Assembly: GCA_049642065.1 (NCBI GenBank)
Contig: JBAROK010000007.1
Location: 2,134 to 66,133 of the forward strand
Direction: 5' to 3'
Source: Candidatus Omnitrophota bacterium
Lineage (GTDB): Bacteria > Omnitrophota > Gorgyraeia > Tantalellales > Tantalellaceae
Length of the DNA: 64,000 nt
The translations under genes were made by a program, and so were the position numbers. Shown here piece by piece: positions 12,001 to 26,705 of the stretch (position 1 is the first letter of the stretch; every line of letters starts with the position of its first letter). The notes beneath the pieces are model-generated. The model was not told where the DNA came from, did not search any database, and saw only the letters and a program-made list of their open reading frames with translations.

Positions 12001-15000
12001 ATATACTTGTGTGAACGACCGGAACAAAGACAAAATTGAATCGCTTGCCAGGTTTATGCGGGAGTATATTGGTTCTTTTAATACGGTAGAGTGGGAGATA
12101 AGCAGGGAGAATATGGTCAGAGGCAATGATGCTATAAGCGAAGATGATTATGTCCAGTTGACCAGTAAGCTGAGAGAAGCGCATCCTGGATTACCGATTG
12201 ATTATGCCGTTTTAACAAGAGAAGAAACAAATCTCCATGTGTATAACGACGGTAAATTAGCTATAAAAGATGAGGGTGCCTTAAAGAATGTGGGAGACCT
12301 TTTCATCCCGGATACGCTTAAAGACAAGAGTAACCAGTCTGTTTTTCGAAGAATAACAGAGAATATCAGTGTGCAGTCTACTTACATACCGCGAAAAGAC
12401 GAAGTAACGGCCCTTCCTTCCACGTATGTGGCCAGTACCCGTGAAGAGTTTACGAAAGCGATAAATAAAATGCAGGCAAAGACACTTTTGCCTCATATAG
12501 AATGGGAAACAGAAGTTGCAGGCGCTATCGGTTATGTAATAGGAATGACAGACAAAGAGATAGAAATATTGGCTCTCGCCATACAGGCGCATCATCTCGG
12601 ACATATTCCCCGGGCAAAGAACAAAAAAGAATTCGAAAAAATGCTTGCCGTTCTTAAAAAAGCATACCCGCCGGACCATGACCTTAAAGGAGGCGAAGTA
12701 TGGCACATTAGAGACGCCATAAATAGATTGTTTGCTGCTGAGGGTGGCGAAGGTAAGACCGAACCGCAAAGATTCGATATATTTCGCGCAGAAATGGCTA
12801 GCCTTCTGGGTAAGAAGGACCTTACTAGTGACCAGAAAGCGATCGCCAGGTCGATGCTAGATTCAAAAGCGTATATGCAGGAAGTGCTGAAAGAGAACAA
12901 GATGAAGCTTCCAGCAGATTTAAGGATATTAACAGAATATTACGGCAGGCACGATAGGTATACTGAAGCTCGCTCCCGGGAAGAAGATCGGTTCAGGATG
13001 GAGCTATCCATAGACCCTGATAGAATGGCCAAACTGATAGCTATTTCCAGGATCGCTTCGACATTCGTTAACAGGATAGACGAATCGGTGCGTAGTCTGA
13101 GGGGAGAAGCGGGCGATTCTATGCCGGAAATAATAAGTTTTATAGTAGATAATCTCAAGAGAGATGGTGAAACAGGCGATAATATTCTTGAAGCTCTTGA
13201 TGGGCTTATTGCCCTTATCAGGGAACAGGATAGTACCATACTTTCAATAGCGAACCGGGCCAGAGGCGGGGATGAGGGACTGATGATTGCCAAATCAGAT
13301 AGGTCGTTCTTGAGGTTCCTTCAGAAAGGTGTTGGAAAGGTCAGAAACAAAAGACAGAATATGCGGATCATAGAATCGTTCAGACGCTATGAAAAAGGTA
13401 TTGTCGCTGAAGATTATTACCGATGGGCTATTGCAGCAGGGATCGTGAGTGGTTTTCTTGGTCTGATAAGCTTGTTTACGGGTTCGATGTGGGTAATAGG
13501 GGTTACCTGCTACAGCTTATGGGCTCTGGGGCGTTATTATTCCATAGGCAGGGATATTGAAAGAGGGACAGGTGCGGTACAACTGGATAAAGAACTCGCC
13601 AAAAAGACTCCTGTGGTCAAAATACGCCCGGATGGCTTACTTGAAAGGGATGAGAAGATATGCAAAAGTCTTCCTCCGTTTACCAACAGGATGCTTAAAA
13701 TACACGAAATTTTCGGGATGAGAATATCGGCGATGATATTCACACTTCCGATAGTAGGACGTATAATCACGAACACGTATGTCGAGATGAAACGGCTCAA
13801 CATGTGGATGGATTTCACGATACGAAAGAACCGGCCGCTTGTCACGTACGATGCTTTTAACCCAAGCCGCGTGAGGGGAAGAAGAGATCAAATGGACTTT
13901 GAAAATGGTTCGTGGAAGTGGAGAAGAGGTGACGGTCTTGCGCTTATAGCTGATATCGGGGATGACCTGAGGAGAAGGATAGAAGAAGTGCAGGAAGCGC
14001 TGAAAAAAGTAGTACCCGATGCCGAAAAACTTTTCTTAATGGAACCGGAAAGGTTGCACATAACCGTGGCAACGCTGACAAAAAACACTACCAGCGTTGA
14101 TACAAATCCAGAAAGAAGGGCAAAAAGGGAGTCCTTGATCAGGGAAACTAAGAGTCGCGTGTCTGCCTTAGGTAGTGGCGGGATAGAAGTCAGTTTTAGT
14201 CTTAATGATCTGACTATTTGGGATAATGGAGATATAGCTATACTGGGTAGGATGGAGAACCGGGGTTTAGACGAGATAAGAACCAGTTTAGACGAGTTTA
14301 ATTTAAGTGTTCATAAAAAAGATATAGTACACGTTACTGTTGGCAGGATATTTGATGAGGATATATCTGTCGATACGTTCAATGAAATAAGGGATGTATT
14401 AGAAAAGTTCCGTAACGGTAAAACCGAGGGTGATAAGAAGAAATTTTTTACGATGACTCCGGAGCTCTTTATCTGGGATCAGGCAGGGAAGACGGACGAC
14501 AAAAAGTACATACACATCCCGCGCACTAAAAAATCGGGCAGAGACAGTAAAAGACTGAGTAAGCTGGGCGAACCGAAAAGGCGCGATCTGAGTGGGGTCG
14601 CATCGAAAGAAACGAATCCTCTCATTGAGCGGCTTATTAAGGAAGGCAAGATAGTAGAGCTTTTTGAACAGAATGGCCAGCTTGACGCTTACAGGGTTAA
14701 ATGGGTTGAAGGATACCAGCCCGGCAGGGTGCAGGAAGAGGTGTTCGGTGAGGAAGTAGACGTGGATGAGATGTTCACAAGGTCGCAACAGGATAACATG
14801 CTCAGGTGGATGCGTCTGCACGGATTACCTGATAGTCGCGGCGGAGTGCATTTTAGAATAGCCCTCGATAACGCGGCTTTAGGCTGGACCGGAGACGAGG
14901 AACATTCCAACATAAGCCATGCAGGTTACCGCGACGGATGCATTTATATAGGTGAGCGTCTGCTCGCTTCCATATTTACCGACCCAGACGATCCATTAAG

Positions 15001-18000: not shown

Positions 18001-21000
18001 GGCAGAATATCTACGAAAACGTTTCGGTGTGCGCAAATTCGTCATAGGTGGCGGTAAAGGAACGCGTTTTTCTCCTGAAGGTATCATGGTGAAACAGCTG
18101 TTCAAGCCCGATAATTATAACACTAATATCAAACAGTCCAGGATATCCTCAGCCTTTGGTATGCTTGAAGATGTTATAGTCGTTGACGCTATAACAATAT
18201 TCAACCTTTTGCACCAGGATAAGGAACTTTTGGCTGAACATAAAACCACGATGTTCTTTAACGTCAGGGAGAATCTTGTCAACCTGATGGACTCCGGGTA
18301 CATCAATAGAGAGCAGTGTAAGGAATTAGTAGGGAAAATAAAGAACATAATCGACAATGAATTGGTCTATACGCACCGTTCAGACCATCTGCGAGATCTT
18401 GGTTCAGCGATGGAATCTGCGGCAAGAGCAGTTGAGGATGTTCTCGGGAAAAAGAATGAAAGGGCCCAGTTCGTTACCGATAAGATATCATATGCGGTGT
18501 TCAAGGTTATTATGGCTATTGGGGAGGAACTTATCGATGAGAATAAGAAGGACGAACTTTTCGGTAAGAATTGTATTGTAATACTAGATTCTGGAGACGG
18601 CCACGGAAGTGCCTATGTGGAAGCTCTGAGAGCCCTTAATTACAGTGGCAAGCTTGACCAAGCAAGGTATTCCGTTATAGTTCATGCCGATTCACCCGGA
18701 TGGGGTCTCGATGAATATCCAAATTACGTATTCATATCATATCTGAAGACGGTAAATACCGTTTCACCGCAAGTACAGGATATGCCCAAAGTGACAATAG
18801 CGGCTAAGAACCCTAGAGACAAACGTGCGCAAGGACGTGCCCGCATAGATACCATTACGGTTGAAAATGTTGGTGAGGTTCCCGTGGGTGTAAGGGAGTG
18901 GAACGAACTGAGCTACCAAGAGAAAAAAGAATCCAGAGAAAAAGCCAAGGCCCAGGATCCGACATGGTTCACCAACGCGAACATACTAATATGCGACACG
19001 ATGTGGGCCTACGATAAGAAAGATGTTTTAGAGAGCGAATACAGGCATGAATTGGGTCGTATGGGCAAGATGAAACGCCGTCCCGCGGAATACTGGAGCA
19101 GCGATTACCTTAATATTGCTGCCAGGGAATATCTGCAACTTATCAAGAAAGATCCTGAAACTGCACCTTTAACGCGGCTTGTATTTATCGGTCAAGACGC
19201 TCCTAATGCCAACAAGACACTTGGCCGGGCTCTTGAATACAGGGATGCCTTACAGAAAATGATCCTGAGAAAGATAAGAAGAATGGGCGTAGAAGTTGAT
19301 AAAGATACAACGGTGGCTATATCCAGTACTGATGTAGGCCCGAATTTTGATCTCGATAAGATAATAGAGGATATCTTTGGGGATAACCTTGAAGGCCCCG
19401 CTAAATTCGGTAACACGAAGCTGAGGGGCGCTATACATCTTGACGCTACGGTAGTTGTGCAAAAAGGAGCTATCCTGGACGGCAGGAAAAAAGATGTTTC
19501 TCTTACGGGAAATTGTGTAGTCGAGAGAGGTGTAGAGCTGCATGGTGTGGTCAGGGCAGATTATCTTTTTGACAAGAACGAGCTTCTGCCGACCAATAAG
19601 TTCTATATAACAGGCAGACAGTTCCGGGACAGCACTACCGAAGCGACAGTAGTAGATAACGTTGATTTCAGGGAACTTGGCCTCATAGTGGACGATCGTA
19701 CAAGGATATGGATAGCGAAAAAGGATAAAGGCGAGAGCGATCTTAGCGTACTGAAGAAAATATTCGGAAGCGATCACCCTGATAGCGGCAGGGTCACGGA
19801 CCAGATATTTGTGTACGGGGATGTTGTGCTGGACAGCACGGTCAGGGTGGAGAACGGTACGATGCTTGACGGTAGGGTTGATGAAGTGATCCTTGTCGGT
19901 GACACGCACGTGCATAAGGGAGTTAACCTCAAGAGCGTCAAAGCTAATGATACAACTTTTGCCGGCTGGAGTGATCTTGACATTTATCATTACAGGCAGC
20001 CTACTCATGACGGAAATGTAGGTATACGCAACTCGGAATTTGACAACTCTTACATAGAGATCCGCGCGGAGGTCATCAACTCGATGATACGGAATTCATA
20101 CGTAGCCAACGGAGCTATGGTAGAGGAATCCGATGTGGCTGATGAAGTTGTCGTGAACGGAGAAGAAGTACGGGACAGGCGCTTAAACAGGAAGGATGAT
20201 GCGTTATCGGTATCGGTAACCGCAGAAGAAGACGGCAAGGTCAATTACATGCCCGGAGCTTTCCGGCTAGAGGAACTTCCCAATGAAGATATAGAAGATA
20301 TACTCGGTTATCAGATCAAGTCCGCCAGAAAGCTTTATATGAAATTCATCTCGGATCCGATCCTTCTCGAACGCATGGTCCAGGAAACCGAACAGTTCAT
20401 ACGCAGCAGCGTGACACCTCGCTTTACGATACAGCAGATCCGGCAGTATCTCATAGCTAAAATAAGGGATAATTGCGACAAGGAACCGGATGTCAGCAAG
20501 TTCCGTCCGCTTGTGGAAGACCTTAGGGCACACGCTAAGCTATGGATGGCCAATGCGATTGAAATTGACATTAATGATGAAGCAGCATCAAAAGCCTTTT
20601 TCAAGGAACTGAGCATACTGGCTACACGCGCTAATTTCATAGATTTTTCAATAGATCCTAAAATGTTCGATATCGACCAATTGGTGGAGACGGATGAAGC
20701 GCAGAGGAAGAAGTTTACCGATCTTGTCGATGAGTTTGCCGATAGTGATCTGGCGATAGACGGTTACAGCGAGTTTGAAAAGATGGTGTTCAGCCCGGAA
20801 AAGGGCGTTTTCCTTTTCTTTACGGATAATATCGGTGAAACTGAGATCGATGCGGTTATGTGGGAATTCCTCGCGCGTATGGGGCATACCGTAGTTATAG
20901 CCGCAAAAGACGGTTTCTCGTATGCTGATATAGACGTTAAAGGTGTCGAAGAAACGGTGAATGCACATCCTTCGCTTTGTAAGCACAGGGATGAAGGCAG

Positions 21001-24000
21001 GATAAAGGTTATAGCAAGCGGGTCTATGTCAGAAGGAGTGTTTCCCCACAAGTTCAGCGACGAAGTCCAGGATGTGCTGCTTTATGGCACTAAACTTAAG
21101 GGCATAATCGCTAAAGGACAGGCGAACCTGTTCACGCTTTCGGCCCGGAACAAGATCAGCGTGCCGGTAGTGGTAATGTGCCTGTCTAAATCCAGGACGT
21201 CGAAAAAGATAACGGGTATAGATATAAAAGAGAATGAAGACGGCAGTAAACTGTTTCCTCCGATGATAGCGGTAGTGCCTGCGGGAGAGAATATCGCTAA
21301 CTGCATCGGAAGAGGCGTATTCGGAGGAAAATTAACGCGTTTTGGCAAAAAAGATGAGGGTGACTCTAGCACAGGCGATACACACGCTTTTACCGCACGG
21401 GACGGCATGAGATGGGCAAAACGGTTTTTAACTGGAGCAGCTTTATTTACTGTTGTCTCAGCAATAGCGGCTATAGGCTTTGTTCTGCATCTGGACCACT
21501 TACCGTGGGGTTTTGTAATAATCTTTGCCGGGGTAGACGTGGTGCTTGCAATGATCTCTTTGGAGTATTATCTTCTTGGGAAGGAAGCTTATAAGGCAAC
21601 GGTTAAATATATTTTTGAAGGCAGGGATTCAAGGGATATGCTTGAGGAAGATGCCGTTTCACAAAAACAGGCTATGGATACAAAGATTGCGGAACATCAG
21701 GCGAACAACATCATAAAATATCATCCGGCTTTCAGGTATCTTTCAGAACATGCTCAGGAAGCCGTAAAGATACACGAGTCGTTTGCGAGCCACAAGTTGG
21801 GCATGTTAGCCATGGTACCTGTGCTTGGTAGGATACTGTGGTTGAAACTGAGAGATGTGCATGACAGGGATATGCTCATACACTCCGATTATTCTAATAT
21901 AGAACAGGTGTTAAGGACGCAGCTTGAAAGAAACGTGGATACTGAGTTCCTGAAAGAAGCTTACCGAAAAGGAGCGAAGGAAGAGCCGATAGAAGGGTCT
22001 AGGATCCTTAAGGTTACTGACCGTTCGGGAGATCCTGATATTAAACGTCAGCAGGGATTCCTGCGGTATGAGCGTACAGTCAACAAAAGATGTACGTTCT
22101 GTAATATCCCGGACCTCTCAACAGAAGTCCACAGGTCAAAGACAGCAGAATGGGCTTTTTCAGTCGAACCGTCTCCGGTATTCAGTTCGCAGATGATAGC
22201 GATAAATTCAAGGCACATAGACCAGGGTACCATGGGGCCGGAAGTTTATTATGACATGTTCCAGATGCTTAAGAATCTTAAGGGATGGCAGATGAGCTGG
22301 CCCGGCAGGCTTAGCACCAGCCATCCGGATCATTTTCATGTCCATATGTTCGAAAGAGACAAGAACTCTCCGGTCGAAGAATACGATATGCAGCCGATAT
22401 GCAGGGACAGAAAAGGCGAAGGTGTGGTTCATTTGATAAAAGACTATCCCGACAGGGACCATGCTATAGCTGCTTTTGCCATAGCAGGGAGCATCAGGAA
22501 CGCTGCTGTATTCGCTAAAAGATGCGCTGACCTGGAAGCAATAATAAAGAGCGCCGGATATGAGGTAGACAAATTCATCACTAAGGGCGCGAATGGCGCG
22601 ATAAAGGTGCTTTTCTATCCGAGGACCGCTTCTTACATGAAAATAGGGCCCTCAGGCCGCGGGAGGTTAACCGGGCCTATTGAATTGAGCGGCATATGGG
22701 TGACTCAGGATGAGAAAGAAAGAGATGCGTTCAGCCTCCGGGATGTGCATGATATTCTTTCAAAGACCACGCTCAGGCTTTACAGCGACAGTTTCCAGGC
22801 ACTTGAGGATCAGATAAAGAGACATTTTTATGAAGCTGAGGGGATAGGCCTTTTACCGTCCAGTATGGATCTCATGGTAACGAATAAATGCAATTTGAAC
22901 TGCCCCGTTTGCTGGGGATCTTACATGCCTAAGCACAGGATATTTGCTCCGGATAACGCTGATATTGAGTGGGTGGATTTCAAGGAGAAAAAGATAAAGT
23001 ATCGTGGCACCGGACAGGAACGGGTGGAGAAGTTCGAGGATAACCAGAAAACGGCTCATGAGCTGGAAGTGATCAGGAGCAAGCTCAGCATGTACTATTG
23101 CACAGAACCGGAATCACCCGAGATAGAGCATATAAGGTTCTTTAGCCTTGCCGGTGACGGTAAGAAGGTAGAGAAGGTCACCGTCAGGTTCACTGAGGGC
23201 AAGACCGACAGTATGGCGCTCGGCAGCGACGAATATAATGATGCAGTTCTAATGGTTCAGAAAAAGATGATCGATGTCATGCATAAGAATGGTATGCGCC
23301 GCATGGTGTTCACCGGAGGAGAGCCTTTACTCGAAGATAATCTCGCGGAACTTTTAAAGTACGCTAAAGAAAAAAATATAACGACATGGCTTTTTACCAA
23401 CGGCCTTCTGATGGACGAAGAAAAAGCGGACCAGATCATGCCGTATGTGGATATGATATCGCTGTCTCTTGACGGTCATGATGACGCGACGAACTCAAGG
23501 AACAGAAAACCAGGTCATTTTGTTGCGGTGCTAAAAGTCCTTAGGATATTAAGCCGCAAATATCCCGAGAAAGAAGTGCAGATACTTACCGTTGTTACGG
23601 AGAGGAACAAAGCATATATCCGTAAGATAGGGTTCCTGCTCAGGCAGGTTACCAAGGGCCTTAAAAGTTTCCAGTGGAAACTTAATTATTACAAGCGCAT
23701 AGGCCGGTCACAGCACGAGAGAGACATAAAGAACGACGTATTTCTAATGGAGTATGGTAAATTCGTGAGCCTTGCAAAGTCCGTGCAGAAGGAGTTCACG
23801 GATATCAAGGTACGATACAGCCCGCCCGACCACGATAAGGCGTATTTATTTGTATTTCCTGACGGTACATTGTCAACGACGGTAGGCCCGGAATATCTGG
23901 AACTCGGCAACATACTTGATGCGGATACGCTCAGGGAGGAGGATAACCTTAAGATATTCAAGACCATAACCGACAATATCCGCAAACGCGCTATCTATAT

Positions 24001-26272
24001 TCCCAAGAAGGGTGCGAAAGCCATACCTGACTTCAAGAGGCGCAACGTATTAAGTGAACAGGGCTTGAATGTAACGGAAGATTTGCTCAGGGAAGCCGGA
24101 CCGGACATATACGAACATACTATGCGCATGCAAAAAATAGCTATACTAATTGCTCGTCGCTTGATCTCTAAGGGGACCAAGATAAGCGAAGAGTCTATAA
24201 GGCTTTTAAGCAGGGCAGCTTTGGCACATGATATAGGGGCAAGAGAAAAATACAATCCGGCTGTTAAGGATATACGTAAAAAGATCACCGCTGGCATACA
24301 TGAGCATCCCGATGACAGGGTAGAAATGACCCAGGTATCCCTAGATAAATGGGCAAGCACAAGAGCTCTCAAATATAAGAACGTGCCCAAAGCAGAGCTG
24401 ATAGAGACTTTAAGGATAGCCAAGGAAACGGGTAATTATTATTCTGTTTATCGCATGTATATAAAGTATGTAGCCTTAGGCAAAAAAGAGCGAGAATCTC
24501 TTACTATGGAAGAAGAAACGGTGACCAGGAACCTTTTCAACCATGGTGAAAGGTCCGTTGAAATATTGCGTGAAAACCTGATCGAAGTCCCGGCAGAATT
24601 CGAACTTCTTGTTAAATACCATCACGATTATAACGGTCTTGAAGATAGGCTCCGAGAGATGGCGAAAGAGGATAGGATCACGCCCGAGAAGAGCGAAGAG
24701 ATAAAGCTTCTTTCTACTATTCTGATAGTATCGGATGTATTCGAGCAGGGCAATAATTACATGCGTCTTGTGGAAATAGCCGGAAGGGACGAGGTCGAAA
24801 GTTTCGGGAAGACGTTCGACACTTTTAATGGTTTCATGTGGAAGAGATTCCATCAGACAGAGCATATAAGCGATACAAGGGCGATAGAGGCGCTTAAAGA
24901 TCTCGTGGTAAAGGATGTCCCGTTATCAGTTAGCGGCATGGGTTCAAGGCCAATTGTTGATAATGATCTGGCGGTTATAATAGCTGAAGCCAGAAAGGTT
25001 CAAGGAACGCAGAGGAACTGGCTTACTTCCGAAGACAGGGCTTTTCAGCTGCGGGAACTGGCCAGGCGCAATCAGCGGACTCATGCTCCGTTGACATTCG
25101 AAATAGCCGTAGGGTTACCTTCTAAACTGTATGACCGGCTTGATGAGGCTGCGCTAAATAAACTAAGAGATGTTCCGGGCATAGCCTCTATCGTAAAGGT
25201 AGAGTCATCAATGAGGGTAGAATCGATGATGGATGAACTTGCCCATAAGACCGAAGGTACCAGATGTATCAACGCGCTTATAAGCGAGGATGTGATAAGT
25301 GATACAACTGATATCTCTAAGGGAATTAAAGAGCTTGAGAAAGTGCTTTATGACTTTGTTAGTAAAGCAACCAAAGATATCCTGGCGCTTACTGATCCGG
25401 AAGTAACTGATCTGACTGAAGAAGGCGTAAAGGCAATAGATGATATCAATGAGCTTGAGGCTATTATGGGAGTTCTTATACGCGCATTACCGCATAACGA
25501 GTCCTATTTGCTAAGTGAAAAGAGCCTGAGGCAGATAAGGATAGAAAATGCGTACAGGGCATTTGTCGCTCAGCGCTCGGAAGAGACAAACCGTGTTGAA
25601 TACCTTGAAAAGATGGTTGAGAATACTGGTAAGCACTATCTGGCGCATTTCGCGGATGGACAGGCCATAATGGAGGGCAAAGGTCATATTGTGGTACCTC
25701 CGGGTCTTGAGATCCGCAAGAGACGTGAAATGCAGGGAGTGAACCGTATGATGGACGCTAATACGGACAAGTTCTTTATAGTAGCGCCGGAAAACGTCAA
25801 AACAGACGATGAGAAACAGCAGTTTAAGAGCAAGTTAATGGAAACATGGATGCTGGACGGTGTTGTATCGGAAGGAGATGTCATCATACTCGAGAGAAGA
25901 GGAATAGATAAGAATTACCGTGCCAGTGAGATCTATAAGATGGTACAGTCGGAATACAAGGATTCCACTAGCACAAATACGGGTATCAGGTGCATCAAAG
26001 GGCAGCTTGAATACGATAACGCAGCGGAAAAAGAGAACATTCTGCAGGTAGGTATGTCGCAAGATGCGGTAAGCACTGTGAACCAGTATGAGGTGTTCGT
26101 GAACCTACTGCTCACGCGTGAAGACGGCGATATGGGGTATACGATATCTGGATTACAGCAGCTGACCAAGGGGCTTTATATGTACCTGCCGTTTGCCAGG
26201 CCGATAAATCTGGAGAAAGAGATAAGGCATTATCATGACAGGTTCGTCAAAGAGGTACTCATAAAGGCCTAA
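2..26272 (+). CDS. Giant multidomain protein, 5'-partial. The frame is open from the window edge, so the ORF-track TTG at 65 is not a real start. At least 8,756 codons in the window; stop TAA at 26270-26272.
   Basis: 26.2 kb uninterrupted reading frame (frame 2) with no in-frame stop back to nt 2. Many recognisable enzyme motifs along its length (see the domain features). Followed by a strong intrinsic terminator at 26362-26390. Confidence 0.9.
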   Translation, partial: SDFDQKVRIIGEWLFPAINDELNKLGLENIEDVDEFGNQVVKERLFKERKEAETSGRFKRGEDGELALDDTYEEVKVVKEFSQMLMDLEAGRVTGIQPGYLMYIAELVEYLEGSRQLNFYRKGTIGNFRVDECTVPLKGENHTFYVLRFRDTGKVLFGVAVKGDKWIKVNGRDANVENKLGKIYELLKSEGYTLVAELADFKMATREELKSRLAELTALAKDEEVEKRFPIYQLGTKGIEGGFIQTQIASPGKVFGIISIDTPGKKDLQQEWSSKIYVPGKGYIAPDDTSKASKAAGAIADSGATNNHANITLRREGFASVIGMGSHQMVVEGNVIRIKCNVPSTEDVIRGNETRTIRHYKEGEVVLRDGDLVMIDASEDSSDGVVVAVGKTQSEEKDFSAEAKELFGVLRDIELGGPLQEGSQYSQLYKRTVGRITGAETKIRDMRLLNMRRILKDASSDKTVNLAKMVAEILIDTSMITDSDKARRTLETLLRSLDDNVRGEVEEFIKLLFGKKVYQIEKEIHAVLGEVGISNVKKNPSSTLLYSNTEHILLEIRDLNDKMALVAEMIPGVDYDPGKGLFAEEADIIRKRFNEALEYLRSKKLDELSAYHSEYRIAEIERILKAADINEEKWIELSDELETLRRTSRGWMLDKIERDLSKVRRDIIKAECLGCDLSSPEMLTLQMEVNRMVAVANIKTMRQKGPGRYVIDLSELGSIYRQVAGNKAAEVAEVMKISESADSYTYRTDSGLTEIRNILKDGFDQVPSGFVISSLAVYSVIQENSAIRPDIEALISGNVAPEEKIEKLTELLLAKGKIPEFLKEMIAEKYSSMAGESKEPIVITRSTSQMEDLLDETRPGVRKAGKYLSFECVKGIDQIKKNIFKHLAHFWVTEGDVNDLHPILVQEMLFDLHSSFVANSVDSAEKNWNVANIDAVLGLGRGVVEGGEGIAIHTFKADNEGRITGRIVPPHNRMWAPAPSGIGIKLVDVPAEMKAARALTEEQVAKIAKLARAFQKYYRFPVNIEGGVTKDGKIVIFQVRPDSTLKSNSYSMSGTGIHSPPVEKIIALRKQYLAAENPSAEELGKVDPAAISELIDTNINELYQARKSESEVRDLEYKLVERLVQFKGYHYDRAREVVMDLRLYHRRSDVVDKLDELFFEELKQILRERLFEEGEFNRDREKISYFVENFHNLQEIREGKDIPNGNLFKSKPEYRDAVITWEERIDRYAYRYFTNKVAWDTAKTNAEKVIFNNVLVRHLSEKAKGEMYAFIRYLVPRLYENIPPLKRLRRPTIVLIGGTTASGKSTSARSVAKNLGMPYYFSADPIREVQRKLIPKDTNLSPADKRSSFQEDPAEKGFIEHGSSVIRSLNECARWAVNENRSMVIEGVHLIPGLIDPKLFEEANVVQIIVTVADEKGHAARIEKRGKEESGRGGAGRYLKDFDKIRKANDLFDEQARSHGVVRVDNSSDFTRTISEVLFYAAGPYKDKAKQGPDERLRAMLDNKVTREKVRTSSSLGKYVKSVYTLGESDKLYIDASEIEPGVIDKSEIEALRNAIVQTTSSGALVIRDFDRLVAEGRSLLDFAASIGFDDVIIGQEALFARTAKEVEPILQGLTAYAAELNVKVLIENLPTTGNAEISIGLKDAYGKGVQDIDMEAIVLADENGEPAGMIEDGDAVFFACKRGEREIQITLPFVAEKIGQKFTDLVVKTYEKIKFGIMTLYHDMFDPLPVAFRPMRQKDPLVDVLSGAGKRFLLSAESEKINHITYFFKGQSREPMEGEEIFSVDSPPKDEHLDRPELSLPALTKGITERMETGNFDFVGINLANCDVIGHYYDPTDVEKNKEIIQIRREAAEAVDEHLGILLEAAKKQGYSVIVTADHGVGEVAVKKGKGVGKHTTNLVPFIVVDPDTTKASVISIAETGRLGDVAPTVLDLMKMQKPEEMTGQSLLVDYPENADPKKVMLIVMDGWGIGAESEDNPIHIANTPVLDSLYKEYLNTRIKASQEEVGLLAGDSGNSEAGHLNLGAGRIVLGDDIRIVNAVKGEPIEGDTTLDENAAILETIAHANEHGSNLHLIGLLSDASSHGRVAHVLELLKLAKRKREEFREEGKGDGFKEVFMHMITDGRSTESGTAPVLLLDMQKQMSRIGLGKIVDCVGRNLALDRAYNWGKTKKAYRLFAMGEGKQVGPVGIAEQLLRDIPELGVAYNWDNHTLSGDRPGFVGSLDVRERVGAIFVTDTTVKDEEKNIFGAFDGHGDIPFFVYRMPKAAKTPEKKKEEETILSAETAQAIIDKCQDKLKATRKSLEAIHAYQYQRVVKLAEDPTLHFDKARKNLNGLFAEIEKILNSPDLERRQRKEAIRALMEGFIGLFGWQTIQSVREHLERDDLPVDILDGVNTYEDLKNALNENAKVNIPDEKIVNYRSKITRRNIEMRELAIEYIELVEEQKRLYNEEREAIREAYVEITGEELVDEEKLHVAARKAYPEYVLDVPHLKDTDKPTFVNVAGVMGVNSADVAHAIAERSGIPSRMHSGMLRGVISGIWPEDFISATDNFNIGKDIKDAYVKAFNKEAKAALEVILTGEGNISRAEAEAILKKFAENWKQAILEPIYSDWVRLTNQGTKQAIKRLLKEKSSQVFVGVFPGLLDPAHHEDANIVSIIVKVEDINEHWDGFLVSAKARGVDNPSDCMAEFFANRILQDHLTDLGRDLILPEVRETAVVDSSNMESAVRNAVNRVIDPIADRYVEVPNEIKEKAELEEKVVLAKYTEAWVKYLKIPQISIAWLLGWAVLRSVSPEAAIAFSIASIFGVIFMVIASKDRLFLEKAVASAVLAVGVSTFVPGCSEAKKDPRPEPRPNAAAASDGDKPGNKESQEKPFEIKPGENIPARDRNKEKKPSEDTMKAVSGLIDNVLAHTDRDRTEDYRKNAKFLMIMTMMVESDQFASSVQYGGGPARGLAQFEPATAKYVRDQVNKLTENKRFKKALQVTFGEKWEEKIFGLSSEEIIRKMEEKLEEVKKELAEAEKKEDLERMFNRKDEMVDLEEALGRRGLRTFFMNWRFRILIIKALGADWGSVSAMNGYRIGQELARNDFFTVIMTRINYFRNRNPIPSRTDIGAVYRYYLATWRPGKPVSFERFKRLVKVVEESGVMKEAVIEKTAAKTSDIAADQREDAPARMEARRRPWIVVLFVLTALSALLFWITYKKMFESFLKSAKQGTVFKMDLFTDIFDRKDLLRKLVASGKEVTVGRIPGTHKYLFRMGDKKYTTTELGEEYAEYIPEGHVHPAEGTAEERANAFMPSDHDLLKSHGNWRYIVSELGITWYATDGAVIETAIEDYATFWHSACHRSLDSIKKMMDERFDVKIDFDQMDLSKTKTRTGRSLLFGKTALSEKPERPSGDVHPFSASEAYKGVVVAFAVSVVMAAMFASKLVFNGFAGFDTIATISAIVGIYSIFTTARYYLLGKATYYALLAEELSPRQAHVRAIATSDGWRHPAFHKLLSKEKEIIEIHESYKNHLMGMIMIMPGFLLVNFLLKRGVTEIADRDENRDKVVEQRDFSNLSVYLNNLRSENEQLISPVPVIREVVEAGSSQVKQLEVGRSAELELKKSRQGQAAREEPSPSQKKIVRNWRFSVEPKGILYGQVEVEVLDKVSQDVVSKVYFQDALEMMKNLAGERLLWTNPTSADKSKNLHFHLYREKTPLPVENHELEPLCEDKDGEGVIYTVKDYPDEDHPIAAFVVKGTLSQINLMSARCYDIEKILRANGQTADKLFVEGEDGEIKVYFYPRRAGYAKIFDSDKARRLIGPVSLSGLWSFANQKDYSRFTKEDLYGVLSKVAVLYKSRNFQRISDAIVRNFREAEGAGILPPSVSFRLFSDSPFAEERKEPENLDERILRRKKVLDALYEDGVRRVNFTFTIPTAGMESEDEWIILQQALEHAKWKGMTSVLSIRNIVHRISVIEKQWARVEQYILPWVDKISLNAQVQNENLDKALRIFGQNCSNKSIEIYTCVNDRNKDKIESLARFMREYIGSFNTVEWEISRENMVRGNDAISEDDYVQLTSKLREAHPGLPIDYAVLTREETNLHVYNDGKLAIKDEGALKNVGDLFIPDTLKDKSNQSVFRRITENISVQSTYIPRKDEVTALPSTYVASTREEFTKAINKMQAKTLLPHIEWETEVAGAIGYVIGMTDKEIEILALAIQAHHLGHIPRAKNKKEFEKMLAVLKKAYPPDHDLKGGEVWHIRDAINRLFAAEGGEGKTEPQRFDIFRAEMASLLGKKDLTSDQKAIARSMLDSKAYMQEVLKENKMKLPADLRILTEYYGRHDRYTEARSREEDRFRMELSIDPDRMAKLIAISRIASTFVNRIDESVRSLRGEAGDSMPEIISFIVDNLKRDGETGDNILEALDGLIALIREQDSTILSIANRARGGDEGLMIAKSDRSFLRFLQKGVGKVRNKRQNMRIIESFRRYEKGIVAEDYYRWAIAAGIVSGFLGLISLFTGSMWVIGVTCYSLWALGRYYSIGRDIERGTGAVQLDKELAKKTPVVKIRPDGLLERDEKICKSLPPFTNRMLKIHEIFGMRISAMIFTLPIVGRIITNTYVEMKRLNMWMDFTIRKNRPLVTYDAFNPSRVRGRRDQMDFENGSWKWRRGDGLALIADIGDDLRRRIEEVQEALKKVVPDAEKLFLMEPERLHITVATLTKNTTSVDTNPERRAKRESLIRETKSRVSALGSGGIEVSFSLNDLTIWDNGDIAILGRMENRGLDEIRTSLDEFNLSVHKKDIVHVTVGRIFDEDISVDTFNEIRDVLEKFRNGKTEGDKKKFFTMTPELFIWDQAGKTDDKKYIHIPRTKKSGRDSKRLSKLGEPKRRDLSGVASKETNPLIERLIKEGKIVELFEQNGQLDAYRVKWVEGYQPGRVQEEVFGEEVDVDEMFTRSQQDNMLRWMRLHGLPDSRGGVHFRIALDNAALGWTGDEEHSNISHAGYRDGCIYIGERLLASIFTDPDDPLRKLILDEDEYNHLRDRDFDCRADKSRYEARLKSVFSRVESILREPPRKYDLYLCTSDEKAVSVYDGEDRDNPQSIHWGNFMPRDPIYVVGNMKPVKVSAGLYIANDFNISSSNIKMKVWMGPADNVNRWSEIRLERVYTNELEKGTEYLFAGMLPSYFKGDFTFKYSLDGGKTWKWANRGENDNRRIERKRTDTIIHEPMGYRVDEKIVTPDYKKHRTIRLYQGNEDLSDIVDAASSADEFFWGKGIHDSDNGHSYYRTNFGALEFRSSAEAKIIHMGDILSSENEYEGQLLIYYDDIQNAIVMRVNSNPGEALEHDAVSDPQERKWNRAVITIPLDHEGRAKRVEHEQTVMGISRAGLSILLRHAGINRKFPKLFRLIQQELVLYHVDDYMFLKHMYGNGMTPVEALNTVMDHPQSVSPEQISYIENMVKYTKSRVLGHLALRCLGKLVDEGMYDRDEYLKYARYTSEKDVLEGMATAERVIRQDDSFLKQMGINPEKVKSIFMRWFINGPNKTIYRVTCNMSNGEERVFAIEVKSPLGSAQGYSMLQIENAMRIWKKKSDKGYDYVPHVFVVKRVDDYRPKILTAPIKGLNIDREGEFHIESLDIESSRVVYDDILVVAREFVEGYQLPDYLAYGTVSAEETRRATVAGLKAFLKLWKDGQDPATGRGPFPMRPAPRDVIVYKIGETYHGVVAEMDSLREGFAIREVIRALQSCGYDKKDVISAAREVLAENERAIITENYGKYKSERVTEMFFAADKGSELHAVQTKGMDDEDAHRIAVKIANTAYELDEDKKRASFTKIRGALRYLSEKVNRNTNIPDDLRKKLSWKIDIFLRQNFWQNVKYYPVRAGRADVFEMLEGFVTDGTVYLVEGFIDDRDLSREENIAGVILYQILSELCSEERMEQLPSKPDYWDSVKGPEGVQNLILGDREEFERKIAKYARKEHIRIAMEDKVLGRNLVTYQGLKNLPEARKNAEEFLETICRIMETEKPEIKGDEDLAEYLRKRFGVRKFVIGGGKGTRFSPEGIMVKQLFKPDNYNTNIKQSRISSAFGMLEDVIVVDAITIFNLLHQDKELLAEHKTTMFFNVRENLVNLMDSGYINREQCKELVGKIKNIIDNELVYTHRSDHLRDLGSAMESAARAVEDVLGKKNERAQFVTDKISYAVFKVIMAIGEELIDENKKDELFGKNCIVILDSGDGHGSAYVEALRALNYSGKLDQARYSVIVHADSPGWGLDEYPNYVFISYLKTVNTVSPQVQDMPKVTIAAKNPRDKRAQGRARIDTITVENVGEVPVGVREWNELSYQEKKESREKAKAQDPTWFTNANILICDTMWAYDKKDVLESEYRHELGRMGKMKRRPAEYWSSDYLNIAAREYLQLIKKDPETAPLTRLVFIGQDAPNANKTLGRALEYRDALQKMILRKIRRMGVEVDKDTTVAISSTDVGPNFDLDKIIEDIFGDNLEGPAKFGNTKLRGAIHLDATVVVQKGAILDGRKKDVSLTGNCVVERGVELHGVVRADYLFDKNELLPTNKFYITGRQFRDSTTEATVVDNVDFRELGLIVDDRTRIWIAKKDKGESDLSVLKKIFGSDHPDSGRVTDQIFVYGDVVLDSTVRVENGTMLDGRVDEVILVGDTHVHKGVNLKSVKANDTTFAGWSDLDIYHYRQPTHDGNVGIRNSEFDNSYIEIRAEVINSMIRNSYVANGAMVEESDVADEVVVNGEEVRDRRLNRKDDALSVSVTAEEDGKVNYMPGAFRLEELPNEDIEDILGYQIKSARKLYMKFISDPILLERMVQETEQFIRSSVTPRFTIQQIRQYLIAKIRDNCDKEPDVSKFRPLVEDLRAHAKLWMANAIEIDINDEAASKAFFKELSILATRANFIDFSIDPKMFDIDQLVETDEAQRKKFTDLVDEFADSDLAIDGYSEFEKMVFSPEKGVFLFFTDNIGETEIDAVMWEFLARMGHTVVIAAKDGFSYADIDVKGVEETVNAHPSLCKHRDEGRIKVIASGSMSEGVFPHKFSDEVQDVLLYGTKLKGIIAKGQANLFTLSARNKISVPVVVMCLSKSRTSKKITGIDIKENEDGSKLFPPMIAVVPAGENIANCIGRGVFGGKLTRFGKKDEGDSSTGDTHAFTARDGMRWAKRFLTGAALFTVVSAIAAIGFVLHLDHLPWGFVIIFAGVDVVLAMISLEYYLLGKEAYKATVKYIFEGRDSRDMLEEDAVSQKQAMDTKIAEHQANNIIKYHPAFRYLSEHAQEAVKIHESFASHKLGMLAMVPVLGRILWLKLRDVHDRDMLIHSDYSNIEQVLRTQLERNVDTEFLKEAYRKGAKEEPIEGSRILKVTDRSGDPDIKRQQGFLRYERTVNKRCTFCNIPDLSTEVHRSKTAEWAFSVEPSPVFSSQMIAINSRHIDQGTMGPEVYYDMFQMLKNLKGWQMSWPGRLSTSHPDHFHVHMFERDKNSPVEEYDMQPICRDRKGEGVVHLIKDYPDRDHAIAAFAIAGSIRNAAVFAKRCADLEAIIKSAGYEVDKFITKGANGAIKVLFYPRTASYMKIGPSGRGRLTGPIELSGIWVTQDEKERDAFSLRDVHDILSKTTLRLYSDSFQALEDQIKRHFYEAEGIGLLPSSMDLMVTNKCNLNCPVCWGSYMPKHRIFAPDNADIEWVDFKEKKIKYRGTGQERVEKFEDNQKTAHELEVIRSKLSMYYCTEPESPEIEHIRFFSLAGDGKKVEKVTVRFTEGKTDSMALGSDEYNDAVLMVQKKMIDVMHKNGMRRMVFTGGEPLLEDNLAELLKYAKEKNITTWLFTNGLLMDEEKADQIMPYVDMISLSLDGHDDATNSRNRKPGHFVAVLKVLRILSRKYPEKEVQILTVVTERNKAYIRKIGFLLRQVTKGLKSFQWKLNYYKRIGRSQHERDIKNDVFLMEYGKFVSLAKSVQKEFTDIKVRYSPPDHDKAYLFVFPDGTLSTTVGPEYLELGNILDADTLREEDNLKIFKTITDNIRKRAIYIPKKGAKAIPDFKRRNVLSEQGLNVTEDLLREAGPDIYEHTMRMQKIAILIARRLISKGTKISEESIRLLSRAALAHDIGAREKYNPAVKDIRKKITAGIHEHPDDRVEMTQVSLDKWASTRALKYKNVPKAELIETLRIAKETGNYYSVYRMYIKYVALGKKERESLTMEEETVTRNLFNHGERSVEILRENLIEVPAEFELLVKYHHDYNGLEDRLREMAKEDRITPEKSEEIKLLSTILIVSDVFEQGNNYMRLVEIAGRDEVESFGKTFDTFNGFMWKRFHQTEHISDTRAIEALKDLVVKDVPLSVSGMGSRPIVDNDLAVIIAEARKVQGTQRNWLTSEDRAFQLRELARRNQRTHAPLTFEIAVGLPSKLYDRLDEAALNKLRDVPGIASIVKVESSMRVESMMDELAHKTEGTRCINALISEDVISDTTDISKGIKELEKVLYDFVSKATKDILALTDPEVTDLTEEGVKAIDDINELEAIMGVLIRALPHNESYLLSEKSLRQIRIENAYRAFVAQRSEETNRVEYLEKMVENTGKHYLAHFADGQAIMEGKGHIVVPPGLEIRKRREMQGVNRMMDANTDKFFIVAPENVKTDDEKQQFKSKLMETWMLDGVVSEGDVIILERRGIDKNYRASEIYKMVQSEYKDSTSTNTGIRCIKGQLEYDNAAEKENILQVGMSQDAVSTVNQYEVFVNLLLTREDGDMGYTISGLQQLTKGLYMYLPFARPINLEKEIRHYHDRFVKEVLIKA
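880..1180 (+). other. PEP-utilising enzyme mobile (phospho-His) domain-like region within gene 1.
   Basis: AIADSGATNNHANITLRREGFASVIGMG...GDLVMIDASEDSSDGVVVAVGK resembles the GG.TSHAAI.ARE.G.P.VVG...DG..G.V pattern of PEP synthase / PPDK / rifampin-phosphotransferase His domains. Confidence 0.4.
2100..3130 (+). other. PEP synthase/PPDK N-terminal (ATP-grasp-like nucleotide-binding) domain-like region.
   Basis: VAGNKAAEVAEVMKI...FDQVPSGFVISSLAVY matches GGKgAnLgE...vPpGFviT. The C-terminal PVNIEGGVTKDGKIVIFQVRPDS matches the DIEWa.ddgklyiLQsRPvT end of PPDK_N. Confidence 0.45.
3865..4440 (+). other. 2-phosphoglycerate-kinase-like P-loop kinase domain.
   Basis: Walker A IVLIGGTTASGKSTSARSVA, then FSADPIREVQRK and MVIEGVHLIPGLIDP. 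This parallels the GG.SGvGKST / tD.iRevmR / iiEGvHlvP pattern of 2PGK-type kinases. Confidence 0.5.
4850..6800 (+). other. Cofactor-independent phosphoglycerate mutase (iPGM/GpmI)-like domain, circularly permuted: the C-terminal ~260 residues come first, then residues 1-~300.
   Basis: Segment 1: KRFLLSAESEKINHITYFFKG...GINLANCDVIGHYYD...VTADHGV...NLVPFIVV...GDVAPTVLDLM..PEEMTGQSLL, corresponding to iPGM residues ~325-510. Segment 2: MLIVMDGWGIG...NTPVLDSL...GDSGNSEAGHLNLGAGRIV...LHLIGLLSDASSHGRVAHV...ITDGRST...VGRNLALDRAYNW, corresponding to iPGM residues ~5-235. The residue ~250-300 region (DGDAVFFACKRGERE and GAIFVTDTTVKDEE) occurs in both segments. Confidence 0.7.
7484..8060 (+). other. 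Second, degenerate copy of the 2PGK-like kinase domain (Walker A lysine/serine lost).
   Basis: FVNVAGVMGVNSADVAHAIAERSGIP aligns with IVLIGGTTASGKSTSARSVAKNLGMP (GKST -> VNSA). VFPGLLDPAHHEDANIVSIIVKVEDINEH aligns with VHLIPGLIDPKLFEEANVVQIIVTVADEKGH. Confidence 0.5.
8330..8520 (+). other. Two or three transmembrane helices within gene 1.
   Basis: IAWLLGWAVL..., AIAFSIASIFGVIFMVIAS and AVASAVLAVGVSTFVPG are hydrophobic stretches. They are followed by the Pro/Lys-rich linker KKDPRPEPRPNAAAASDGDKPGNK. Confidence 0.5.
8690..9400 (+). other. Lytic transglycosylase (SLT/lysozyme-like) domain.
   Basis: LMIMTMMVESDQFASSVQYGGGPARGLAQFEPATAKYV fits the SLT signature E-S-x-F...S.aGA.GLMQ..P.TA with a catalytic Glu. 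Downstream GYRIGQELARNDFFTVIMTRINYF and AVYRYY are consistent with SLT family C-terminal motifs. Confidence 0.55.
10200..12990 (+). repeat. Paralogous module A of gene 1 (TM/YYLLGK segment, then HIT/GalT-like, radical-SAM-like and HD-like domains). This is the catalytically degenerate copy.
   Basis: Aligns along its length with module B (21430-24680): TTARYYLLGKATYY / SLEYYLLGKEAYKA; RHPAFHKLL..IEIHESYKNHLMGM / YHPAFRYL..VKIHESFASHKLGM; GEGVIYTVKDYPDEDHPIAAFVVKG / GEGVVHLIKDYPDRDHAIAAFAIAG; VDKISLNAQ / VDMISLSLDG. Module A lacks the Cys pair, has LHFHLY instead of HFHVHMF, lacks CxxxCxxC and GGEPLL, and has AHHLGH instead of AHDIG. Confidence 0.6.
13900..14400 (+). other. 2H phosphoesterase (LigT / cyclic phosphodiesterase)-like domain.
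   Basis: Two H-x-T-x motifs ~95 residues apart: ERLHITVATL (14054-14075) and IVHVTVGRIF (14326-14346). Each is preceded by hydrophobic strands, which is the hallmark of the 2H family. Confidence 0.35.
15300..15560 (+). other. Possible carbohydrate-binding (CBM20/21-like beta-sandwich) module.
   Basis: MKVWMGPADNV...YLFAGMLPSYFKGDFTFKYSLDGGKTWKWANRGEN resembles the W...FKY..DG..W.W..G.N pattern of starch-binding CBMs. This is a weak call. Confidence 0.2.
18020..18700 (+). other. Sugar-1-phosphate nucleotidyltransferase (NTP_transferase) domain.
   Basis: FVIGGGKGTRFSPEGIMVKQLFKP matches the GGxGTRLxPlT..PK.L signature of glucose/mannose-1-phosphate nucleotidyltransferases. Confidence 0.45.
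19380..20230 (+). other. Left-handed beta-helix (hexapeptide-repeat) region following the nucleotidyltransferase domain.
   Basis: Runs of [LIV]-G-x-x-x-x hexads: GNTKLRGAIHLDATVVVQKGAILDG, LTGNCVVERGVELHGVV, GDVVLDSTVRVENGTMLDGRVDEVILVGDTHVHKGVNL. Confidence 0.4.
20700..21200 (+). other. DUF89 (ARMT1/damage-control sugar-phosphate phosphatase)-like domain.
   Basis: VFLFFTDNIGETEIDAVMWEFLARMGHTVVIAAKDG and later IIAKGQANLFTLSAR resemble the DNxGE...D and KGxxNyE.L signatures of DUF89 proteins. Confidence 0.3.
22020..22700 (+). other. HIT-superfamily (GalT / Ap4A-phosphorylase-like) nucleotidyltransferase/phosphorylase-like domain.
   Basis: Cys-x-x-Cys (RCTFCN at ~22088-22110) upstream of the histidine triad HPDHFHVHMF (22322-22351). 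This is the arrangement seen in the GalT branch of HIT proteins. Confidence 0.4.
22870..23650 (+). other. Radical SAM domain (SPASM/MoaA-like core) with an unusually long insert between the Cys triad and the Gly-rich SAM motif.
   Basis: TNKCNLNCPVCW (CxxxCxxC; 22888-22914); ~130 aa later VFTGGEPLL (23315-23332); then YVDMISLSLDGHDD. Confidence 0.55.
24100..24760 (+). other. HD-domain phosphohydrolase-like domain.
   Basis: EHTMRMQKIAILIARRL...RAALAHDIGAR (H...HD) and downstream LLVKYHHDYNG, as expected for the HD superfamily. Confidence 0.45.
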
Positions 26273-26361
26273 TTCGCAGGTCCCGTGGGCTGCATGATTT
26301 GCGGCTCACGAAACCTGCGGGTTATGGTTAAAGTTCTACTTGGAGGTAGGACCAGGGATAG

Positions 26362-26390
26362 CAGGGAAGCAGCAGCTTCCCTGTTATTTT
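26362..26390 (+). terminator. Rho-independent terminator of gene 1.
   Basis: Perfect 9-bp GC-rich stem CAGGGAAGC (26362-70) / GCTTCCCTG (26375-83), loop AGCA, followed by TTATTTT (26384-90). Lies ~90 nt after the TAA. Confidence 0.7.
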
Positions 26391-26432
26391 GCCCCATAAG
26401 TTAGGGTAGAAAATAGTTAGAATATAGGTTAT

Positions 26433-26460
26433 TGACATGGACGTGGGAAAGTGTTATACT
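26433..26460 (+). promoter_or_regulatory. Sigma70-type promoter P1 upstream of gene 2.
   Basis: TTGACA (26433-38), 16-nt spacer, TATACT (26455-60) with an extended -10 TG at 26452-53. Confidence 0.55.
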
Positions 26461-26610
26461 GTATCTACGGTTGAGGAATTAAAAAGCTAGGATTGGTTGG
26501 TTTTAAATGGTTGGGTTAAGAATTTGACGATGTGAGGGAGAGGTAGTAAAGGTTGGGGAAAGCAACAAAGTGAAGAAATACACTACTGGTTAAGGGTTAA
26601 AAAAGGTAGA

Positions 26611-26640
26611 ACATTCTAGTTGATAAACATGCTAGAATGT
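26611..26640 (+). promoter_or_regulatory. Candidate operator: perfect 9-bp inverted repeat overlapping promoter P2.
   Basis: ACATTCTAG (26611-19) and CTAGAATGT (26632-40) are exact reverse complements with a 12-bp spacer. The repeat spans the -35 of P2. Confidence 0.4.
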
Positions 26641-26648
26641 GGTATCAT
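26620..26648 (+). promoter_or_regulatory. Sigma70-type promoter P2 upstream of gene 2.
   Basis: TTGATA (26620-25), 17-nt spacer, TATCAT (26643-48). Overlapped by a 9-bp inverted repeat. Confidence 0.4.
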
Positions 26649-26693
26649 TTAACTATTAGACGATAAAAAAGCCAGAAGGGTATATAAATAGCG

Positions 26694-26697
26694 AGGA
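26694..26697 (+). promoter_or_regulatory. Shine-Dalgarno for gene 2.
   Basis: GAGG ~8 nt upstream of ATG 26706. Confidence 0.5.
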
Positions 26698-26705
26698 AAA
26701 CAAAT

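Follow-up and report, generated by a model that had tools for sequence, protein, structure and literature searches.

A viperin-like radical SAM domain within a three-enzyme cassette of a giant Omnitrophota protein

The giant proteins of Omnitrophota are among the largest polypeptides known, and their function is essentially obscure. A stretch of 64,000 nucleotides from a Candidatus Omnitrophota contig (JBAROK010000007.1), here called the window and analysed at its full length, encodes two such proteins. The first of these, ORF1, contains a radical S-adenosylmethionine (SAM) domain that lies between a HIT-like and an HD domain and carries a large insertion next to its cluster loop. This radical SAM domain is intact in its motifs and related to viperin. 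It is the middle unit of a conserved HIT-radical SAM-HD cassette in a membrane-anchored, multi-enzyme giant protein, where it would probably face the cytoplasm and act on a nucleotide-type substrate.

An intact radical SAM core

ORF1 occupies positions 2-26272 of the plus strand, the strand of every coding feature of the window discussed here. Its reading frame, that of base 2, is already open where the window begins, meets its first stop codon at 26270-26272 and encodes at least 8,756 amino acids. The TTG at 65 looks like a start only because the window is cut there: no earlier start codon falls within the window, and the full-length protein must exceed 8,756 residues. Residue numbers are those read from base 2, the real N terminus lying beyond the window. 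The radical SAM domain is thus embedded in a giant protein, as the original prediction for this DNA had it.

The domain extends over 22841-23986 (amino acids 7614-7995). An earlier estimate of its span, 22870-23650, located the right region but stopped short of the end at about 23986. The CX3CX2C motif, CNLNCPVCW (22889-22915), contributes Cys7630, Cys7634 and Cys7637, with codons at 22889, 22901 and 22910. Cys is scarce in both giant proteins (0.5% of ORF1 and 0.3% of ORF2), which makes this cluster conspicuous, and the motif is the sole CX3CX2C among their 20,965 residues. The SAM-binding core motifs follow within 23306-23692: VFTGGEPLL (23306-23332), LFTNGLL (23390-23410), ISLSLDG (23456-23476), ILTVVTERN (23582-23608) and FQWKLNYY (23669-23692). 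These are invariant or near-invariant columns in the family alignments, and the window copy keeps all such columns, namely the three Cys, GGEP, TNG, SLDG, strand β5, WK and HDK..FPDG.

The Pfam model Radical_SAM (PF04055) scores 58.2 bits (E 1.5e-15) against a gathering score of 29.5; the long gap behind the Cys motif keeps the model from aligning before the GGE region. The domain is an intact radical SAM core, far beyond chance, and the motifs first read as such (CNLNCPVCW, VFTGGEPLL and ISLSLDG) all lie in the ORF1 frame. With the catalytic motif set intact, the domain would be expected to bind a cluster and to carry out SAM chemistry. A search for downstream auxiliary-cluster Cys, proposed along with the original prediction, returned none: the only Cys between residues 7637 and 8422 is C7700, which is not conserved and lies within the insertion. 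The SPASM family was not reported by Pfam for any scanned segment.

The best NCBIfam model for the domain is that of viperin (NF038283, viperin_w_prok), at 86.6 bits with the insertion excised and 78.1 bits with it, against a curated cut-off of 180. With the insertion excised, the alignment covers profile positions 4-260 of 281, and the best PADLOC model, that of prokaryotic viperins (pVip), scores 97.3 bits. The domain therefore belongs to a compact, unnamed radical SAM family of viperin-like size and fold and is not a viperin by the curated criterion. For other members of the family, the best NCBIfam model is StsB or viperin about equally often. A profile search of the Protein Data Bank (PDB) matched SkfB and viperins, with SkfB (6efn) at the top (E 5.7e-24), and the WK of FQWKLN aligns with FRWKV of the viperin-like structure 9DFN.

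An AlphaFold2 (AF2) model of the domain reached a mean predicted local distance difference test score (pLDDT) of 91 and a predicted template modelling score (pTM) of 0.90. It shows the alternating β/α elements of a partial (βα)6 barrel, so that the structure prediction called for earlier returned a radical SAM fold, with the insertion folded as well. In Foldseek searches of the PDB with this model, 9DFN ranked first (E 7e-12), followed by 9DFU and 6Q2P, with SkfB fourth; many radical SAM structures were matched with a probability of 1.00. Query-normalised template modelling (TM) scores stay at or below 0.58, and no PDB structure spans the insertion. BlsE and DesII appear further down the PDB and Foldseek match lists.

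The affinity to SkfB raises the question of whether the domain is a peptide-modifying maturase of the SkfB/StsB kind, with a peptide, or even part of the giant protein that contains it, as substrate. SkfB is the top PDB sequence match and ranked first in a Foldseek run with an earlier model before coming fourth with the later one, and StsB is the best NCBIfam model for several standalone relatives. However, SkfB matches only the core (TM 0.51-0.54), whereas the viperin-like structures match over their whole length, C-terminal extension included (target-normalised TM 0.71-0.75). Neither SPASM nor downstream auxiliary-cluster Cys were found, no RRE or peptide-binding domain was detected, and the neighbouring domains are nucleotide-type enzymes. 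A maturase is consequently quite improbable.

The inserted subdomain and relatives in other giant proteins

The first Cys of the window domain is separated from TGGEP by 141 residues, compared with 41-43 in its homologues. Standalone homologues pass directly from CWGSxMP into helix α1, and the window copy has about 100 extra residues at this point. The insert comprises exactly 101 amino acids (7644-7744; 22931-23233), reaching from the cluster loop to helix α1; it begins with KHRIF and ends with GSDE, immediately before YND. When these residues are excised, a core of 284 amino acids remains that is collinear with the standalone homologues. The original prediction was thus right that a large insertion separates the Cys triad from GGE, but its figure of about 130 residues corresponds to the total spacing.

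An exhaustive phmmer search with an 850-amino-acid query containing the HIT-like, radical SAM and HD domains recovered relatives within giant proteins, all of which a word-indexed homologue search had missed. By BLASTP, P0044 (6,059 amino acids) is 54% identical and P0047 (4,985 amino acids) 38% identical over the whole 850-residue stretch, while P0045 (6,030 amino acids) and P0046 (5,209 amino acids) each align in two pieces, at 48-56% and 45-46% identity, respectively. The HIT-radical SAM-HD cassette is conserved in all four. Scans of contigs from genomes and metagenomes added L005 (also recovered as L015 and L018), L006, and L008 (also recovered as L016 and L017), which come from metagenome-assembled genomes (MAGs) labelled Omnitrophota or "uncultured Planctomycetia". 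P0046 and P0052 are annotated as Candidatus Omnitrophota and lie on the same 50,732-nt contig with consecutive accession numbers. The nearest relatives overall, at 51-71% identity, carry the labels Candidatus Omnitrophota or "uncultured Planctomycetia"; the window itself holds no marker genes. The ORF1 protein gave no self match in either of the protein collections searched, one of them of 15 billion proteins, and no contig identical to the window was found.

An insert of 95-106 amino acids occupies the identical site in P0044 (equivalent to L014), P0047 and L005 (as in L015 and L018), and aligns with that of the window. It is homologous in these four giant proteins, with invariant P, DF, A, Y, F and E, and its identity between copies is 20-29%, compared with 45-70% for the core. 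The corresponding domains of P0045, L006, L008 and P0046 lack it. Their core identity to the window is 52-71%, on a par with that of the insert-bearing copies.

In the AF2 model, numbered so that residue 1 is amino acid 7614, the insert lies between the short helix that follows the Cys motif and helix α1 (130-149). Its pLDDT was 26-52 when the alignment held only insert-less homologues, and rose mostly to 83-95 once the insert-bearing domains of P0044 and P0047 were added. The predicted fold is β-β-β-α-β-β-β, with strands at 42-46, 51-54 and 61-64, a helix at 69-86, and strands at 95-102, 110-117 and 122-126. As modelled, the insert is a lineage-specific α/β subdomain grafted beside the cluster loop. 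It had no match in Pfam among all families at E ≤ 10, no homologue in a profile search of 5.8 billion proteins, and no paralogue in either giant ORF by BLAST.

The patchy occurrence of the insert among orthologues of about 70% core identity, in a clade with unresolved branching, is what might be expected of an assembly artefact, an intein or an in-frame mobile element. Such an origin is nonetheless extremely unlikely. The insert recurs at the same site in four sequences from independent assemblies, two of which were recovered from several metagenomes each. It is in frame, has a GC content of 0.48 next to flanks of 0.475 and 0.45, is not bordered by DNA repeats, and folds confidently onto the core in the model. 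Judged by its termini, as no dedicated intein test was run, it lacks the N-terminal Cys, Ser or Thr and the C-terminal His-Asn followed by Cys, Ser or Thr of an intein, and Pfam gave no Hint-domain match. To our knowledge, 101 residues is shorter than any mini-intein.

The radical SAM domains of these giant proteins that correspond to the window copy are referred to as B-type, after the name cassette B used for the window cassette to tell it from a paralogous cassette A upstream. The Cys triad and GGE are kept in the B-type copies of the window, P0044, L005, P0045, L006 and L008, the other five having 67-71% core identity to the window. Both features are lost in P0046 and P0047. The B-type copy of P0047 (amino acids 3789-4200) reads GEKLNCNVVW and FMGAEP in place of the Cys triad and GGE, and still has an insert of about 100 residues; that of P0046 (amino acids 4123-4420) reads KYDRNCPVSW and FTVGSKY. 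These residues were lost independently.

Bootstrapped neighbour joining groups the six intact copies into one clade at 100% support and leaves the P0047 copy outside it. Within the clade, monophyly of the insert-bearing copies receives only 14% support. Because an insert-bearing copy lies outside a fully supported clade that contains both states, the insert is probably older than the clade, with at least one loss since. Orthologues that are just as close, and whose motifs are intact, do without the insert, which argues that it is dispensable for the chemistry; since it is also retained in P0047, where the Cys triad is dead, its role is most likely structural. L005 (6002-7300) has, in addition to the insert at the same site, about 28 residues directly after GGEPLL (ADLHFPDGQVPQTAYLDEILAGDPIRKK) and a further 25 or so acidic residues before the last core strands, both lacking in the window. 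The radical SAM domain thus seems unusually tolerant of surface insertions.

The cassette, its membrane side and its likely substrate

The original prediction placed the radical SAM domain between a HIT/GalT-like and an HD domain, and this arrangement holds. The upstream HIT-like domain (22082-22840) carries CTFC at 22091-22102 and, at 22331-22351, a complete histidine triad, HFHVHMF. DUF4922, a family of the HIT clan, scores 23.8 bits in the window against a cut-off of 23.6 and matches four of ten orthologous segments, with a best E of 2.9e-9. The assignment appears marginal but consistent. The downstream domain (24110-24748) scores 25.3 bits with Pfam HD (cut-off 22) and 24.5 bits with the NCBIfam HDIG model, just under its cut-off of 27.6. 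As an HDIG-type phosphohydrolase domain, it contains the His of YEHTMRMQ, ALAHDIG with the AHDIG signature (24218-24238), KYHHDYNG (24614-24637) and LIVSDVFEQ (24722-24748). Neither the HIT-like profile nor the HD region matched any PDB sequence.

Cassette A (10871-12991; amino acids 3624 to about 4330) consists of a HIT-like domain, a pseudo-radical SAM domain and a degenerate HD domain. By BLASTP, its HIT part is 38% identical to that of cassette B (E 7e-57), and its radical SAM and HD part 23% identical (E 3e-21). It reads RLFSDSPFAEERK (11579-11623) where the Cys triad would stand, FTIPTAG (11717-11746) in place of GGEP, and AHHLG (12578-12604) at the HD site, from which the aspartate is gone. 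The 101-residue insert is absent. A-type copies without the Cys triad and GGE occur in seven other giant proteins, which indicates that the duplication is old and that the dead copy has been maintained.

Such conservation of dead copies could mean that the radical SAM domain of cassette B, too, is turning into a pseudoenzyme: it would not catalyse but serve as a scaffold or ligand-binding module, kept for its structure or for binding SAM or nucleotides. Cassette A and its seven counterparts are dead yet conserved, and so are two of the B-type copies dead. Set against this are the invariant and near-invariant columns, which are complete in the window and in the five other intact B-type copies and point to purifying selection on catalytic residues. 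A scaffold role for the window domain is therefore unlikely.

The original prediction took the giant protein to be a secreted or membrane protein, and found an oxygen-sensitive Fe-S enzyme in that place unusual. A predicted transmembrane hairpin (21437-21568; amino acids 7146-7164 and 7171-7189) lies about 200 residues upstream of the cassette. By Kyte-Doolittle hydropathy, its segments are the last hydrophobic ones before the C terminus of ORF1, and few others occur elsewhere in the protein. The loop, DHLPWG, is six residues long and contains no Lys or Arg, while the outer flanks have four and three Lys or Arg in 15 residues. A hairpin returns the chain to the side from which it started, and by the positive-inside rule that side, and the side of the cassette, would be the cytoplasm. 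The recognisable domains of ORF1 (PPDK_N, an AAA_18 kinase, Metalloenzyme/iPGM, an ARMT1-like phosphatase, HIT, Radical_SAM and HD) need ATP, nucleoside triphosphates (NTPs) or SAM, which argues for the same location. Most likely, then, the cassette faces the cytoplasm and is not secreted, and the supposed puzzle of an Fe-S enzyme outside the cell loses its footing.

An extracytoplasmic domain whose insert shields the cluster from oxygen would draw on the several hydrophobic segments of ORF1, on the N-terminal anchor and SecA-like domains of ORF2, and on the departure of the insert from the chain right behind the cluster loop. It is very unlikely all the same. The hairpin puts both of its Lys/Arg-rich flanks on one side of the membrane; SAM, reductant and nucleotide substrates are cytoplasmic; and the same architecture holds insert-less orthologues with intact triads. 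In a survey of Omnitrophota long proteins, PF04055 is listed in 90 of 779 Pfam-positive proteins, along with HIT and HD (Nielsen and Lui, 2026, bioRxiv 10.64898/2026.06.07.730766). There, such enzyme content is deemed compatible with an inner-membrane-anchored arrangement that faces the cytoplasm, and the genomes are described as having no aerobic terminal oxidase (Nielsen and Lui, 2026).

In the word-indexed search, the best matches, with E values as low as 6.5e-68 and 44-49% identity across the aligned part, came from standalone proteins some 285 amino acids long, exemplified by P0001, from a Candidatus Woesearchaeota MAG, and by P0002-P0008. They are 45-49% identical to the window domain over the core, lack the insert, and share its motifs and a C-terminal HDxAYLFxFPDG..GN region. 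In three unrelated contigs (L001, 6452-8819; L002, 6463-8858; L003, 6964-9528), the gene forms a trio with a nucleotidyltransferase-like gene and a His_Phos_1 phosphatase gene. The radical SAM gene of about 285 codons overlaps the end of the conserved upstream gene (290-346 amino acids) by a stop/start overlap, and the trio genes appear to be translationally coupled. The upstream partner bears the GGxGxRL...PKP signature of sugar-1-phosphate nucleotidyltransferases, with weak but consistent matches to NTP_transf_3 (E 0.0018) and 2CU2 (E 0.0097). The standalone proteins group together in the neighbour-joining tree (98% bootstrap) and are placed, with weak support, among the domains of giant proteins, a hint that the gene has moved between Omnitrophota and other lineages.

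One of the trio hosts is a Woesearchaeota (DPANN) archaeon, and a MazE/AbrB-like gene is also common to L001 and L002. The idea that the giant protein is a fused operon was considered and found unsupported at the level of sequence, because the partners of the standalone homologues are not homologous to the giant ORFs; in BLASTP of the neighbouring genes against these ORFs, only the radical SAM gene itself showed homology.

In both settings, a radical SAM enzyme stands beside a nucleotidyl-transfer enzyme and a phosphohydrolase. Where the original prediction had named no substrate, we infer a nucleotide or a nucleoside diphosphate (NDP)-sugar from these neighbours and from the affinity of the domain to viperins, BlsE and DesII. 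Under the preferred account, the cassette would be tethered by the transmembrane hairpin at the cytoplasmic side. With SAM and a [4Fe-4S] cluster bound, the domain would generate a 5′-deoxyadenosyl radical and use it to take a hydrogen from a phosphorylated substrate of the nucleoside type, either an NTP or an NDP-sugar, much as viperin acts on CTP. The HIT and HD neighbours may build or cut back the phosphate or nucleotidyl moiety, either on the substrate or on the product. Leaving the chain directly after the cluster-binding loop and rejoining it at helix α1, the insert could pack on neighbouring domains or cover the cluster face.

Several observations weigh against this account. The viperin score is less than half of the curated cut-off, and StsB/SPASM-type NCBIfam models outscore viperin for several standalone family members, so that the idea of a nucleotide substrate leans on modest similarity and on context. 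That context has its own limits: the nucleotidyltransferase and His-phosphatase partners of the standalone homologues are not homologous to the HIT and HD domains, and the nucleotidyltransferase call is weak (E 0.002-0.01). The topology is drawn from a hydropathy window and the positive-inside rule for a protein whose N terminus lies outside the window. Finally, catalytic residues have been lost repeatedly among the radical SAM-like domains of the giants (the cassette A lineage and the B-type copies of P0046 and P0047), and selection on the chemistry is thus not universal.

A bolder proposal, and one rather unlikely to hold, is that the cassette equips the giant protein to produce a modified nucleotide, such as a 3′-deoxy-3′,4′-didehydro (ddh) nucleotide of the kind that viperin makes from an NTP, or an NDP-sugar in deoxy or rearranged form. 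An Omnitrophota cell that depends or preys on another would make the product at its membrane, to use it against its partner cell or to exchange it with that cell. The insert might then be a novel element of regulation or docking, gating electron delivery to the cluster or coupling the radical step to the HIT and HD active sites, and the dead twin could serve as an allosteric or scaffolding partner. If true, this would be viperin-type chemistry employed in offence and not in antiviral defence.

Elsewhere in ORF1, the N-terminal part (approximately 2294-6553) contains a PPDK_N ATP-binding domain, an AAA_18 kinase-like domain, and Metalloenzyme and iPGM_N domains. The latter two each match two stretches, which may represent two phosphomutase-like units. 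An ARMT1-like damage-control phosphatase lies at about 20570-21193, and all of these domains are phosphoryl-transfer enzymes. ORF2 (26706-63335) encodes 12,209 amino acids. Its residues 2718-3058 (34857-35879) match the SecA preprotein cross-linking domain (SecA_PP_bind, E 2.4e-20) and the SecA P-loop (E 1.4e-13). No Pfam match at E ≤ 0.001 was obtained in its other approximately 11,800 residues. ORF2 also has an N-terminal anchor and, after the SecA-like domains, a cluster of hydrophobic segments at residues 3357-3790. SecA-like domains and transmembrane regions are described for Omnitrophota giants by West-Roberts et al. (2023, bioRxiv 10.1101/2023.11.21.568195), and the embedded SecA-like domains of ORF2 match this published hallmark.

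The C-terminal 390 or so residues of ORF1 (8366-8756; 25097-26269) and ORF2 (11823-12209; 62172-63332) are homologous, with 27% identity over 421 columns (E 8e-26), and had no Pfam match in either protein. In ORF2, this region comes after hydrophobic segments at residues 11588, 11745 and 11781. It may be a common C-terminal module of these giants. The two ORFs are separated by 433 nt (26273-26705) containing two strong sigma-70-like promoters with TG-extended -10 elements, TTGACA-17-TATACT (26432-26460) and TTGATA-17-TATCAT (26620-26648), so ORF2 probably has its own promoter. GC-rich hairpins, judged by eye, lie 3′ of the ORF1 stop; a scan of the gap found no canonical terminator, and Rfam matched no family in it. 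GC content is 45-48% across the window, GC skew is +0.12 to +0.29 in all 2-kb bins and AT skew is mostly positive, giving a purine-rich coding strand.

Comparison with known systems

That giant proteins of Omnitrophota contain radical SAM Pfam domains was known before, as the 2026 preprint documents (Nielsen and Lui, 2026). What stays interesting is a viperin-like radical SAM enzyme in a conserved cassette, a conserved dead twin, and a lineage-limited subdomain of about 100 residues that was previously undescribed. The cassette offers a tractable entry into these proteins: about 900 residues, three enzymes, intact motifs, standalone homologues, and natural variants with and without the insert as well as dead ones. 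Its substrate would tell whether the giants perform real metabolism and whether viperin-like nucleotide chemistry exists beyond antiviral defence. The insert, for its part, shows that a whole subdomain can be fitted beside the cluster loop of a radical SAM enzyme.

Among the giants, ORF1 resembles the published Omnitrophota multi-enzyme metabolic cluster proteins: ORFs of many thousand codons tiled with enzyme Pfam domains that include PF04055, HIT and HD, sparse transmembrane helices, internal domain duplications and SecA-like domains in giant proteins, here in ORF2. The published accounts deal with Pfam content, and in the passages searched the HIT-radical SAM-HD cassette, its dead paralogue, the viperin affinity and the insert were not found (West-Roberts et al., 2023; Nielsen and Lui, 2026). 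The standalone radical SAM proteins of about 285 residues clearly belong to the same family as the window domain by identity, motifs and C-terminal region. They differ from it in lacking the insert and in forming a trio with nucleotidyltransferase-like and His_Phos_1 partners instead of a fusion with HIT and HD.

The SkfB/StsB sactipeptide maturases (6EFN; NF045574) share the radical SAM core in sequence and fold. Unlike them, the window domain has no SPASM/twitch auxiliary-cluster Cys, no peptide-recognition domain and no precursor-peptide context. A precedent for extra residues at the cluster loop is QueE, whose CX14CX2C motif is described as having additional residues inside the Cys motif and an extended loop (cited in PMC4389238). 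Both enzymes accommodate extra cluster-loop residues while keeping the canonical fold. In the window domain, however, the Cys motif itself is canonical and is followed by a whole 101-residue subdomain, predicted to be folded.

The closest known systems are viperin and pVip (NF038283; 6Q2P, 9DFN and 7N7H). Like the window domain, they have a compact partial-barrel core of about 280 residues, a C-terminal extension and no auxiliary cluster; they provide its best named model and its best fold match, share the GGE, TNG and (F)xWK motifs, and have nucleotide-handling enzymes nearby. Identity to the solved viperins is only 14-20%, and the score does not reach half of the 180-bit cut-off. The 101-residue subdomain after the cluster loop is present in no solved viperin. 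Viperin is a standalone defence gene that adjoins a kinase, whereas the window domain is one part of a giant protein, with HIT and HD as its fused neighbours.

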